DNA of 64,000 bases, from NCBI GenBank assembly GCA_028534125.1, contig CM052816.1, positions 10,170,001 to 10,234,000 on the forward strand. The letters run 5' to 3'. Shown in pieces: positions 3,400 through 5,702 of the stretch (positions are counted from its first letter, which is position 1; each line of letters begins with the position of its first letter). A model generated the notes under the pieces. That model saw only the letters and a program-made list of their open reading frames with translations, ran no database searches and was not told the origin of the DNA. The position numbers and the translations under genes were made by a program. The DNA is from Lama glama. Its lineage: Eukaryota.

Positions 3400-3930
3400 T
3401 TTCACAAATACTAATTAAGGTACCCGGATGTCCCAGGTCTTATCATGGATTCTGAGAAGCAAATTATAACTATGAACAGCACACTCCTGCCCTCACAAAG
3501 CTTACAGATTCATGGAGGTGACCGCACTTAAATAACAAGGGCAGGTAATAATGCGGGGGGAAGGGTGGCTTCCAGGAGGAACCTATATGCCAGCAGAGAC
3601 CTGAAGGAGCCACACAAGTTAGTCAGACTAAAGTGTGTGTGTGGCAGTGTGTGAGGATGAGGGGTACACAGGGGACCATGTGAGGAGGCTGGGCAGAGAA
3701 TGGAGAACAATGAAGCCAGTAAGAAAGTCCTCATGGGAAGAGAGGAAGAATCAGAGAATTACAGGACATTCCCCATGGGCAGGATACAAGCGAGCAAAGT
3801 GGAGGAGGTAAGGCCGGGAGAATGGGCAGGTCCGAGATGTGAAGGTGTACTCGCATGTGTGTCCGTGGGTCTTTGAAGGATTTTAAGCGGGTCGTTGACA
3901 TGACCTGACCAGCCCTTTGGAGAGCCGGCG
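3400..3930 (-). mobile_element. Degenerate L2 fragment (source of the duplicated segment 3795-3906)
   Basis: cctgccctcacaaagcttaca and gaaggattttaagc...gacatgacctga motifs resemble L2 antisense sequence. Confidence 0.5.
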
Positions 3931-4062
3931 GTCGTCCACGTGCCGAGTGGCCGGGCGCCACGCCGACGGGAGCCCCCAGGAGGGCAGCGCAGGCTGAGGG
4001 ACCGCTGGGCACTTGGTCCAGGCCTGGGTCGCAGAGTAACCGCCGTCTCTGCCTCTCCCCAG

Positions 4063-4198
4063 GGCTTCCAGGGCAGCGGCTGAGGAGACCTCCCCGCGGG
4101 GCAGCACGCAGTAGCTGCACTCCGGAGAAGCGGCAGTAACATGGGCGCACCTGTTTGAAAGGCATTAAACACCAACAGACCCCATTCCGAAAGGAACC
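4063..4198 (+). other. JAKMIP2: JAKMIP2 5'UTR part of the start-codon exon (exon predicted 4063-4327)
   Basis: Branch-like GTAAC (~4036-4040), pyrimidine tract cgtctctgcctctcccc and AG at 4061-4062 upstream of ATG 4199; implies an upstream non-coding exon outside the window. Confidence 0.7.
4141..4158 (+). promoter_or_regulatory. Upstream ORF (MGAPV*) in JAKMIP2 5'UTR
   Basis: aacATGg (A-3, G+4) ... TGA at 4156-4158, 40 nt before the main ATG. Confidence 0.65.
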
Positions 4199-4327
4199 AT
4201 GTCCAAGAAAGGGCGGAACAAGGGCGAGAAGCCCGAGGCGCTCATTGTCGCCCTTCAAGCTGCCAACGAAGACCTCAGGACCAAGCTCACGGACATCCAG
4301 ATAGAGCTGCATCAGGAGAAGTCCAAG
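4199..4327 (+). CDS. JAKMIP2: JAKMIP2 coding exon 1 ([43 protein letters not shown], 43 aa)
   Basis: accATGt start; translation matches the JAKMIP2 N-terminus as I recall it; donor AAG|GTGAGT; 129 nt. Confidence 0.97.
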
Positions 4328-5417
4328 GTGAGTGGGGCTCCCCGAGGCCGCGGCCTGGGACGCCCCCGTGGGCCCCTGTCCGCCGGCTGCCAGAGAGGAC
4401 GACGACCCCGTCACGTGCGGAGATGCCCTGGTAGGGAAAGGAGGGGGCTGAGCACAGATACGCAGAGAATGGGACAAACCTGCTTGGCCCGGGAGGCTGG
4501 ACTCCGCCTCCCCAGGAAGCCAGAGAGGAGAATTGAGAGCCCGCCCCGCCCCGCCCCACCTCCGGACACCTACATAGGGAGATCCCCTTGGGCAGGTTCT
4601 AACGTGTCCTCTGTAGTTACTCCCCCAGGGGCATTTAAAGCAACCTTTCTAAAATGAGTCCCTCCGCTGCTCAGAACCTCCAAAGGCTTGCTTCCTCTCA
4701 GTCACAGGTTCCCACCCCGCTCACTCAGCGTCAGCCTCTTCACTGCACCAGGAGAGACACATTGGTCACACTGGGGCCTCTGCCCTTGTTCTTCCCTTCC
4801 TCCCCTTCCTCACCCACTTCAGGTGTCAGCCTGAGTCCCACCCATCTGACCACAGACTCTGAAAACAGAGCCCTTCCCAGGCCCACACTCCCTCTGGCCT
4901 CTTCGCAGTTCATTTCATAGCAGTTTTTATGTTTATTTACTTATTTCGGGCTTCTCTCTCCCAAGTGTCCTCTCCATGACAGCAGAGTCTCACCTCCCCT
5001 CTGTATCCCTAGAGCCTAAATAAATGTCCAGAACTGGAAAGCCCAACATATATTTGTTGACTGAGCAGGGGAATGACTAAAAGGTGATTCCTTGCTTACA
5101 TCTCAGTTTCTTCGACAGTAACATACTACTATCCTGTAGAGGTGTGATGAGGTTTCAATGAGACAAGTGCAGAAAGGAGTAAGGAGGAATAAAAGGTTCA
5201 TGTTGAATGCTCAGAGAGCTGCCTGGCACATGGTGACTGGTAACAAAAACTATTCGTAGGAATATTCCTTCTAATATGCTGTACACTTGAGTCTGTTGCT
5301 AACTAGACTTGGGAAAGTCTCTTTACTTCTCTGGATCTCATGCCTTAAATGAGTAAGTGCTAATACTTACCCGTGTGGTGTGGATATCAAACAGGGTCAT
5401 GGATAAGGAAAACATTT

Positions 5418-5585
5418 TGTTTTGTCTTGTTTTTATTGAAATATAGTTGATGTACAATATTATAGAAGTTGCAAGTGTGCAGTATTGTGACTCATAGTTT
5501 TAAAGGTTATGTCCTTTTACAGTTATTATAAAATATTGGCTATATTCCCTGTGTTGTACAATGTATCCTCGTAGCTTATTTTGTA
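5418..5585 (-). mobile_element. 5'-truncated L1 3' end (Laurasiatheria/artiodactyl-type), antisense
   Basis: T-rich tail then ttgaaatatagttgatgtacaatatt...ttggctatattccctgtgttgtacaat. Confidence 0.7.
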
Positions 5586-5590
5586 GTCTG

Positions 5591-5702
5591 AGGTCATGGC
5601 AGCGTCCCACTTAAATCCTTCAAAGACCCACGGGCACACGTGCGAGTACACCTTTCACATCTCGGACCTGCCCATTCTCCCGGCCTTACCTCCTCCACTT
5701 TG
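5591..5702 (-). repeat. Inverted copy of 3795-3906 (112 bp; 6 substitutions + 2 single-base indels), flanked by TAGTCTGAGG direct repeat
   Basis: Manual reverse-complement alignment; 49 nt perfect core; TAGTCTGAGG at 5584-5593 and 5704-5713. Confidence 0.95.

Follow-up and report, generated by a model that had tools for sequence, protein, structure and literature searches.

An inverted 112-bp duplication around the start-codon exon of JAKMIP2 in Lama glama, with features of a template-switch insertion beside an L1 fragment

The start-codon exon of JAKMIP2 in Lama glama is bracketed by two inverted copies of a 112-bp sequence. For the downstream copy (arm 2), a later DNA-level, microhomology-mediated template-switch insertion into the intron is the origin that we somewhat favour, because an L1 piece adjoining it looks older than the two arms. 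The analysis was performed on a window of 64,000 nt (assembly GCA_028534125.1, contig CM052816.1, positions 10,170,001 to 10,234,000 of the forward strand), and all positions given here are those of the window.

Structure and copy number of the inverted pair

The exon, the arms and their surroundings are located as follows:

4063..4327, plus strand: JAKMIP2 start-codon exon, with the acceptor at 4063 inferred from sequence only
3795..3906, plus strand: arm 1, source copy, at the 5' edge of a CpG island, with 43 G and 17 C on its G-rich sense strand
5591..5702, minus strand: arm 2, putative derived inverted copy of arm 1, 93% identical to it
4328..15686, plus strand: intron 3' of the start-codon exon, 11.4 kb, containing an L1 fragment and arm 2
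3651..4500, no strand: CpG-island-like stretch (GC 0.62, observed/expected 0.64) that takes in arm 1, the exon and the first part of the intron

The splice borders could be read from the window sequence, with the AG at 4061-4062 and the GT of the donor at 4328-4329. The coding part of the exon (4199-4327) encodes 43 aa that show 100% identity with the JAKMIP2 N-terminus of many mammals, and the next JAKMIP2 coding exon begins near 15687.

Alignment of arm 1 with the reverse complement of arm 2 covered 112/113 nt, with 6 substitutions and 2 one-base indels. When 55 nt of flank were included on each side, the local alignment still ended exactly at 3795-3906 versus 5702-5591. Repeat finding returned two pairs of sub-arms, one of 49 nt with 100% complementarity (3795-3843/5654-5702) and a second of 42 nt with 95% complementarity (3842-3883/5613-5654). 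The six substitutions cluster toward the 3856-3898 end (P = 0.014), and four of them, plus one indel, fall in the final 25 nt of the arms. The observation of the inverted pair is confirmed: self-comparison and local alignment agree on the duplication as it was described in the initial annotation, including its differences and its 49 perfect nucleotides, and its claim that the arms bracket the start-codon exon also holds: 156 nt separate arm 1 from the acceptor, and 1263 nt separate the donor from arm 2.

With arm 1 as query, a search of the llama's own 2.35-Gb assembly returned two candidates, and both, when scored, proved to be arm 1 and arm 2 (93%, E = 9e-38). Since just two genomic copies exist and the E-value is this low, the match is far beyond chance and does not represent a dispersed repeat. 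Many near-identical copies, which had been named earlier as the mark of such a repeat, were looked for in this assembly and none was found beyond the two arms. The earlier view of a local, lineage-restricted copy rather than two independent repeats is borne out by the two-copy status and by a direct repeat that marks arm 2 as inserted.

It is hardly credible that the arms belong independently to a dispersed repeat family or that arm 2 arose as an assembly artefact. Some room is left for these explanations by the fragmentation of the assembly (1,072,352 contigs) and by the genome search, which skips very common words. Against them, the only two candidates genome-wide are the arms themselves, the right flank of arm 2 (5703-5860) is single copy in the genome, and the copies differ by their substitutions and indels, while artefactual fold-backs are identical; the joints of arm 2 are also clean, with microhomologies and a direct repeat. 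Words sampled across 3700-5900 as a whole also occur, at a fraction of 0.79-0.88, in 14 DNA-like sequencing runs carrying four organism labels.

Joints of the inserted copy

The direct repeat around arm 2 consists of two copies:

5584..5593, no strand: left copy, 10 nt, TAGTCTGAGG, preceded by TTTG at 5580-5583
5704..5713, no strand: right copy, TAGTCTGAGG, preceded by A at 5703 and TTTG at 5699-5702

The exact 10-nt repeat flanks arm 2 only and was reached in 1/5000 shuffles; with TTTG and the A included, it lengthens to 14/15 nt. Because this repeat surrounds arm 2 alone, arm 2 is, as judged from its joints, the derived (inserted) copy, a point overlooked in the initial annotation. Both joints carry a microhomology. 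AGG, 3 nt long, ends the left repeat copy and at the same time begins arm 2, and TTTG at 5699-5702 makes up the last 4 nt of arm 2; these matches are short and could have originated by chance. No poly(A) and no A- or T-run was found in the sequence at either end of arm 2, nor was a TTTT/A-type endonuclease site present at its joints.

A search of positions 3500-6000 against Rfam gave 0 matches at E<=1, and folding of arm 1 on both strands was no better than that of shuffles (z +0.66 and +1.00). No sign of a retro-copied small RNA is seen, since arm 2 is devoid of poly(A) and endonuclease site and arm 1 has neither an Rfam match nor structure. An origin of arm 1 from a small RNA was rejected on the same Rfam result and on the folding of the four single strands (z -0.27 to +1.10).

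In a template-switch insertion, a growing DNA end would have left its own template within the first coding intron of JAKMIP2. With AGG/CCT as a 3-nt microhomology, the stray end would have annealed 1.7 kb upstream to the sense strand, where about 110 nt would have been copied in reverse-complement orientation; TTTG, a microhomology of 4 nt, would then have brought it back 14 nt behind its point of departure. Re-entry behind the point of departure would yield an inverted copy with a short flanking direct duplication. The switch would have struck the final bases of a 5'-truncated L1 fragment that was older and resident beforehand, in the setting of either FoSTeS/MMBIR-like switching at a replication fork or snap-back synthesis during break repair. 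The two-copy status, the joints, the L1 context and the lower divergence of the arms are observed; the order of these events, the enzyme at work and neutral fixation of the insertion are matters that we infer.

What is expected of such an insertion is found here, i.e. a template close by in cis (1.7 kb upstream), microhomology at both joints, and a short target duplication accompanied by neither poly(A) nor an endonuclease site. Arm 2 resembles the products of microhomology-mediated template switching (polymerase-theta snap-back, FoSTeS/MMBIR) in its nearby template on the same chromosome and its reverse-complement orientation, and it resembles known template-switch inserts in the 3-4 nt microhomologies, the short duplication by re-priming behind the departure and the lack of poly(A). 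In C. elegans, polymerase theta generates reverse-complement templated inserts via snap-back synthesis, with repeated priming, template switching and error-prone synthesis (PMC5068794, excerpt). Errors near the abortion point are reported in the same excerpt, and the mismatches of arm 2 are likewise clustered at one end. Polymerase-theta inserts usually measure less than 25 bp and are copied from templates no more than about 10 bp from the break (PMC5068794), in contrast to the 112 nt of arm 2 and its template at 1.7 kb, so that arm 2 falls outside a narrow definition of these inserts (tens of bases at most, template at about 10 bp). For FoSTeS/MMBIR, the segments usually discussed span kb to Mb, and arm 2 is smaller. 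A 112-nt copy from 1.7 kb away is atypical for polymerase theta, and fork-type switching fits better.

The templated insertions termed TSIPs offer a further comparison. Like those of class 2, arm 2 is a copy of about 100 nt from elsewhere in the genome without poly(A) or an L1 endonuclease site; the sources of TSIPs are distant, whereas the template of arm 2 is local, in cis and inverted (PMC5110952, excerpt). The flanking duplication is a trait given in that excerpt for class 1. Of the features listed there for class 1 TSIPs and retro-insertion by L1 ORF2p, arm 2 has the duplication and lacks the poly(A) and the 5'-TTTT/A-3' site.

The adjoining L1 fragment

Three features are distinguished at the L1 fragment and its candidate target site:

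5415..5585, minus strand: 5'-truncated L1 3' end, with a body from ~5430 to ~5585
5406..5417, no strand: candidate left L1 target-site duplication, AGGAAAACATTT, 10/12 match to 5711-5722
5711..5722, no strand: candidate right L1 target-site duplication, AGGAAGGCATTT, 10/12 match to 5406-5417

Positions 5420-5585 belong to a high-copy family, for which 2579 candidates were found in the genome; 40 of them were scored and showed 84-87% identity. The family could be recognised as L1 by one of its copies (L010), which on the strand opposite to the window's plus strand encodes ORF2p residues 1087-1162 (94-aa ORF, PDB sequence search, E = 8e-34). A Pfam search with four ORFs of this copy gave 0 families, and a PDB sequence search with a second ORF gave no match. 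Read as its reverse complement, the degenerate T-rich tract at 5415-5434 corresponds to the L1 poly(A) tail. Past the truncation point, all 11 L1 copies examined remain mutually homologous for 60 nt (median local scores 17-28), while the corresponding 60 nt of the window score 6, and arm 2 begins within a few bases of this point. Arm 2 was also removed in silico to see whether L1 homology continues into the right copy of the direct repeat; the alignment score rose by 1 in 9/11 copies, was unchanged in one and fell by 4 in one, a result that does not discriminate. The anatomy behind the origin (5' end of the L1, direct repeat, microhomologies) had also been overlooked in the initial annotation.

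The proximity of the two elements speaks against a template switch, for which the position of arm 2 within about 10 nt of the L1 5' end would be a coincidence, put at a few per cent by estimate and not by computation. The main rival explanation, which we regard as possible yet unlikely, is that arm 2 is filler of the L1 integration itself, in a chimeric insertion of the U6/L1 type. About 165 nt of L1 RNA would have been reverse-transcribed, after which the enzyme or a host polymerase would have switched to the arm 1 sense strand or to nascent sense pre-mRNA, with 110 nt copied, re-annealing to the L1 RNA end and joining of the target. On the minus strand, the order is indeed arm-1 copy (sense), L1 3' end and poly(A), all in the same orientation and joined at the L1 truncation point, which is the architecture of L1 chimeras (bioRxiv 10.1101/2025.02.02.635956, excerpt). 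Those chimeras likewise join a foreign segment, with matching orientation, to the 3' piece of a 5'-truncated L1 that keeps a poly(A) remnant (same excerpt). Unlike their partners, arm 2 derives from 112 internal nt of the gene it sits in, 1.7 kb distant, and not from a small RNA or the end of an mRNA (arm 1 is no known small RNA), and the parts do not look contemporaneous, the patch having a direct repeat of its own. This direct repeat includes the junction between the L1 end and its flank, which is simpler to explain if the junction pre-existed. The candidate 10/12 target-site duplication lies outside the whole unit of L1 plus arm 2, as an L1-coupled insertion would have it; it was, however, reached by 361/2000 shuffles and is not significant, and its right copy begins 8 nt past arm 2.

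Two other L1-related routes were rejected. A 3' transduction needs a source L1 beside arm 1 and poly(A) after the piece, neither of which is there, and twin priming would invert L1 sequence, while the inverted piece here is not L1.

Relative age of the arms and the L1 fragment

The divergence between the arms is 0.056 (K2P), and the L1 fragment has a branch of its own of 0.088 in a star estimate from 11 copies, or 0.124 in an ML tree. These values speak against a simultaneous arrival of L1 and arm 2, with the reservation that the counts are small and that the comparison is confined to the llama genome. Arm divergence is far below what the L1 branch predicts: if both arms were neutral and as old as the L1, 6 or fewer differences would be expected with P = 4e-4 (star branch 0.088), and the ML branch is even longer. 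If arm 1 was frozen and arm 2 alone evolved, the difference from the 0.088 branch is not significant (P = 0.15), and the zero changes in the first 61 nt have P = 0.005 on the same terms. Arm 2 furthermore retains 6/7 inferred ancestral CpGs within an otherwise CpG-poor intron, for which P = 0.009 at the age of the L1, with CpG decay taken as 6 times faster; this too is at odds with an L1-coupled origin. The whole age argument rests on six substitutions and on 11 L1 copies that were picked as best matches, and it would be weakened if arm 1, at the edge of the CpG island, is under constraint.

For an L1-coupled origin, the low divergence between the arms would need later gene conversion or constraint. 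The divergence of the last 25 nt is near the ~18% expected for a pair of the age of the L1 and, together with the clustering of substitutions, fits an old repeat that was partly homogenised; the clustering could reflect partial gene conversion of an older repeat. Gene conversion between repeats of 112 nt is, however, expected to be rare.

In a search for an orthologue or an empty site in the protein collection, the minus-strand ORF at 5594-5878, which covers the right flank and arm 2, gave one candidate and none that scored. The antisense ORF at 3734-4177 covering arm 1 had 147 candidates in this collection, none at E<=0.01, and a scan of metagenome contigs for an exact 27-nt match gave none.

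Predicted RNA pairing and possible function

As a by-product of the proposed template switch, the arms could pair in any pre-mRNA begun upstream of 3795, giving a stem of 112 bp that closes a 1.68-kb loop with the start-codon exon inside it. The RNA duplex of the arms, which had been proposed earlier for calculation by RNAduplex, was predicted to be strong, at -217.7 kcal/mol versus -63.5 +/- 5.6 for 200 shuffles. When 134 kb upstream of the exon were compared with the 11.4-kb intron, the arm pair was the top cross-exon inverted HSP, with 161 bits; the next pair, at a distance of 21 kb from the acceptor, scored 102. At E<=1e-5, this comparison gave 3 inverted HSPs and one of 34 kb gave 5, the arm pair being top in both. 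In the sense RNA, 3/6 substitutions become G-U wobbles, and a predicted 265-nt circle reads 43 aa plus 6, i.e. 49 aa; on recomputation, the wobble count and the circle arithmetic of the initial annotation were both correct.

A layout suited to circRNA formation or exon skipping is plausible, because the arms form the strongest cross-exon inverted match and because of their predicted duplex energy. Complementary inverted arms (112 nt, 93%) stand on both sides of the exon, and the pair is stronger than its competitors in bit score, with no third genomic copy. Circularised exons flanked by inverted matches are known from primate Alu pairs, the long inverted repeats of mouse Sry and the DNAREP1 pairs of Drosophila laccase2. 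The JAKMIP2 exon is like these in having a near-perfect inverted pair close to AG/GT exon borders with few competing pairs. It differs in that its arms are a unique local duplication and not transposon copies, that its upstream arm may be untranscribed, and that it is known from DNA alone.

The proposal that arm pairing acts as a lineage-specific RNA switch, driving back-splicing (with the 265-nt circle and 49-aa peptide) or skipping and tuning JAKMIP2 output, is improbable. The word switch denotes a functional hypothesis only, and as a reading of function it is compatible with either origin of arm 2. In its favour are the score of the arm pair among inverted matches across the exon, the lack of a third copy that could compete, and a duplex energy far below that of the shuffles. 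A further CpG-island-like stretch 113 kb upstream could be the canonical promoter, and arm 1 would then be intronic. Reverse-complementary matches promote back-splicing and exon skipping alike (PMC8330042, excerpt), and a different part of the mouse Jakmip2 gene gives rise to at least one circRNA (PMC8160265, excerpt).

Against the switch, the CpG-island-like stretch at 3651..4500 covers the exon and may be an alternative promoter. Because arm 1 lies on the 5' edge of this possible promoter, it is possibly not part of the pre-mRNA; if transcription starts in the island, arm 1 may lie outside the JAKMIP2 transcript. The three wobbles are found among four transitions, which is the level of chance, and most inverted pairs of this kind are neutral. 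The literature on JAKMIP2 and circRNA, as represented by titles and the beginnings of abstracts, contained nothing on the start-codon exon.

Two further ideas are very improbable. The hairpin might be no neutral scar but a selected, lineage-specific device that ties up the start-codon exon in the 265-nt circle, with its 49-aa frame, or has it skipped, and so lowers or tunes JAKMIP2 protein in neuroendocrine tissue, which would explain the low divergence of the arms, the 6/7 CpGs kept and the fact that half of the changes are wobble-compatible. Alternatively, the patch might have been copied from nascent sense RNA or from the G-rich strand displaced in an R-loop at the CpG island (GC skew 0.43), which would imply transcript-guided repair in the germ line.

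Significance

As it stands, the duplication is an ordinary structural variant and an ordinary type of feature, and its functional role is hypothetical. The locus provides a well-resolved inverted templated insertion of about 100 nt with readable joints, its size being between those of short polymerase-theta inserts and of large rearrangements by template switching at forks. The L1 end beside the patch makes it useful for separating retrotransposition-coupled filler from later repair. Since the arms are unique in the genome, the case can be tested free of a repeat background. Should the hairpin indeed cause back-splicing or skipping of the start-codon exon, one small repair scar, with no transposon pair involved, would have made a lineage-specific circRNA, and this scar would act as a translation brake on JAKMIP2, a neuronal and neuroendocrine trafficking gene.

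The inverted pair and its gene context

Inverted-repeat search of the window revealed a perfect inverted pair of 49 nt (3795-3843 and 5654-5702) and an adjoining pair of 42 nt with 95% identity (3842-3883 and 5613-5654). Local alignment of the complete arms, 3795-3906 (arm 1, plus strand) against 5702-5591 (arm 2, minus strand), gave six substitutions and two one-base indels, which confirms the 112-bp inverted duplication of the initial annotation. The limits of homology are sharp, as an alignment with 55 nt of extra flank per side ended exactly at the arm borders. A search of the llama's own 2.35-Gb assembly with arm 1 yielded two candidates, both scored, which were arm 1 itself and arm 2 (93% identity, E = 9e-38); repeat counts from this genome search are lower bounds. 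Since only the two arms were recovered genome-wide, their similarity greatly exceeds chance and they do not belong to a dispersed repeat. Among 24 sequencing runs found, 14 DNA-like ones with four organism labels contain 0.79-0.88 of the words sampled from 3700-5900, and three are recorded as RNA. The assembly carries a gap of 500 N at 59612-60111.

The arms enclose the start-codon exon of JAKMIP2 (4063-4327). Its coding part, 4199-4327, encodes 43 residues with 100% identity to the JAKMIP2 N-terminus of many mammals; in a protein search with this product, 1214 of 1228 candidates reached E<=0.001, and those that bear a name are JAKMIP2. An AG at 4061-4062 follows a pyrimidine tract, from which we infer an acceptor at 4063, and a GT is located at 4328-4329. 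The remaining coding exons were found on the plus strand from ~15687 to 49951 (tblastn with one full-length relative, P0074), and the intron after the start-codon exon therefore covers 4328-15686 (11.4 kb). The same search gave overlapping low-identity matches (48-63%) in 33780-37029, spanning residues 554-667 of the protein at three sites (33780-34070, 35020-35205 and 36892-37029), as would be expected of coiled-coil exons that resemble each other or of alternative exons. A short uORF (4141-4158; ATG, four codons and stop) is located in what is presumably 5' UTR within the start-codon exon, 41 nt ahead of the main ATG. Three CpG-island-like stretches belong to this context:

3651-4500: CpG-island-like stretch around the start-codon exon, with arm 1 on its edge
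15651-16250: CpG-island-like stretch over the large next JAKMIP2 coding exon
~113.4-112.3 kb upstream of the window start (loci L019-L028): CpG-island-like stretch of 1150 bp, GC 0.61, observed/expected 0.75

On its sense strand, arm 1 has a strong excess of G (43 G against 17 C, skew 0.43). An antisense stop-free frame of 305 codons (3731-4648, minus strand) crosses the island and the exon; no relatives of its last 148 residues were found by protein search, and the frame probably just reflects the high GC content.

The L1 fragment beside arm 2

The stretch 5420-5585, within the 170 nt left of arm 2, belongs to a high-copy family (84-87% identity in the 40 scored of 2579 first-look candidates), and nearly all matches among these 40 end at query positions 161-168, i.e. 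5580-5587 of the window. In one genomic copy (L010), a segment encoded 0.8-1.1 kb right of the shared piece, on the strand opposite to the window's plus strand, matches residues 1087-1162 of human L1 ORF2p (E = 8e-34), which identifies the family as L1 and the window's piece as the antisense of an L1 3' end. Pfam gave no family for four ORFs of this copy, and a second ORF had no match in a PDB sequence search. The fragment can be described as follows:

5415-5585, minus strand: L1 3' end, 5'-truncated, ~165 nt, with a degenerate poly(A) remnant

The position of the poly(A) tail is taken by a degenerate T-rich tract (5415-5434). In all 11 L1 copies examined, mutual homology continues for a further 60 nt, with median local scores of 17-28, while the corresponding 60 nt of the window score 6. 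The 5' truncation of the window's L1 is thus placed at ~5585, and arm 2 starts within a few bases of this point. In the genome search, the right flank of arm 2, 5703-5860, occurred as a single copy. A candidate L1 target-site duplication (5406-5417 and 5711-5722) agrees at 10 of 12 positions, a value reached by 361 of 2000 shuffles and not significant alone; its divergence is about as expected at the age of the L1. That age was estimated from the fragment's own branch, ~0.088 in a star estimate with the 11 best-matching copies and 0.124 as terminal branch of an ML tree, and the range of 0.09-0.12 suggests an old insertion.

Joints and relative age of arm 2

The two sides of arm 2 carry the same 10 nt, TAGTCTGAGG, as an exact direct repeat (5584-5593 and 5704-5713). 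When the junction windows were shuffled 5000 times, a repeat of at least this length arose once; counting the preceding TTTG, the agreement is 14 of 15 nt. The last three bases of the left repeat copy, AGG, are also the first of arm 2, and the TTTG ahead of the right copy is its end. No such flanking repeat was found at arm 1. The direct repeat and joints around arm 2 alone mark it as the inserted copy and arm 1 as the source. The ends of arm 2 show no A- or T-run, and the joints lack a TTTT/A-type site. By their sequence they resemble joints formed through microhomology, where synthesis was primed anew 14 nt behind the position at which it had broken off.

The arms differ by a K2P distance of 0.056, or 0.028 per arm (0.021 outside CpGs). 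If both had evolved neutrally since the L1 insertion, 19.5 differences would be expected against the six seen (P = 4e-4); with arm 1 frozen and arm 2 alone evolving, the deficit loses significance (P = 0.15). Arm 2 retains six of seven inferred ancestral CpGs although the intron is CpG-poor. If CpGs are taken to decay six times faster, such retention at L1 age has P = 0.009. All six substitutions fall in the 3856-3898 part (clustering at either end, P = 0.014). On these small counts, and with no outgroup, the inserted patch looks younger than the L1. The initial proposal of a young local copy thus agrees with the two genomic candidates and with arms less diverged than the L1.

Proposed origin of arm 2

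The main rival to the template switch proposed below is that the patch was made during the L1 insertion itself, by a reverse transcriptase jumping from the L1 RNA end to arm 1, back to the L1 RNA and on to the target, a route that would yield the direct repeat too. The minus-strand order of arm-1 copy (sense), L1 3' end and poly(A) is that of L1 chimeras (bioRxiv 10.1101/2025.02.02.635956), and the higher divergence in the last 25 nt of the arms would suit a partial conversion tract. The age difference and the CpG retention count against this route, which would need later gene conversion or constraint, and it is considered rather unlikely.

With moderate confidence, arm 2 is attributed to a microhomology-mediated template switch at the DNA level. 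In this model, a growing 3' end would have quit its own template just past the L1 end, paired through AGG/CCT with the sense strand 1.7 kb upstream, copied ~110 nt there in reverse-complement orientation, and returned by TTTG annealing 14 nt behind the departure point, where synthesis would have resumed. The logic is the same in fork stalling and template switching (MMBIR-like) or end-joining snap-back synthesis. For polymerase theta, PMC5068794 describes reverse-complement inserts via snap-back as well as template switching and repeated rounds of priming; about 1 in 30 positions within inserts is an error, with more errors close to the abortion point, and inserts are mostly <25 bp and primed within ~10 bp of the break. 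By these limits, arm 2 (112 nt, template 1.7 kb off) lies outside the usual range of that enzyme. Whether a displaced sense strand or nascent sense RNA served as template is speculation only. As a mutation, arm 2 would be a templated inverted insertion of intermediate size.

Other candidates were rejected. A scan of 3500-6000 against Rfam returned no match at E<=1, and the arms have no stable fold on any strand, which rules out arm 1 as a recognisable small RNA. The anatomy of the locus fits neither 3' transduction nor twin priming.

Possible role of the pair in RNA

No other inverted match found between the intron and the sequence upstream of the exon scores as high as the arm pair (161 bits). 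Comparison of 34 kb upstream with the intron gave six HSPs, five of them inverted, with the runner-up (102 bits) 21 kb from the acceptor; extension to 134 kb gave eight HSPs, three inverted, with unchanged ranking. The runners-up are older L1-type pieces ~17.2-17.7 kb upstream of the window start, inverted relative to the intron L1 pieces 5427-5560 and 8031-8220 (78% over 137 nt, 77% over 79 nt); these are the sole other cross-exon inverted matches found.

The arm duplex has a predicted energy of -217.7 kcal/mol, where shuffles give -63.5 +/- 5.6, and no competing third copy of the arms was found in the genome search of the own assembly. As had been claimed from the sequence, three of the six substitutions wobble-pair (G-U) in sense RNA, and a circle of 4063-4327 reads 43 + 6 = 49 residues before a stop.

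Reverse-complementary matches flanking an exon are a layout that favours back-splicing and exon skipping (PMC8330042), and the pair is hypothesised to act as a switch of this kind for the start-codon exon. This role presupposes that arm 1 is transcribed. The island ~113 kb upstream is a candidate for the canonical promoter of JAKMIP2, in which case the first exon may be non-coding; the island at 3651-4500, in which the start-codon exon lies, might serve as a transcript start as well. Judged by titles and the beginnings of abstracts, none of the 11 papers found on JAKMIP2 and circRNA concerns the start-codon exon; a mouse Jakmip2 circle is recorded from another part of the gene (PMC8160265).

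As a gene feature, the JAKMIP2 start-codon exon is one more case of an exon flanked by reverse-complementary matches, unusual only because a unique local duplication, rather than transposon copies, supplies the arms and because the enclosed exon bears the start codon.
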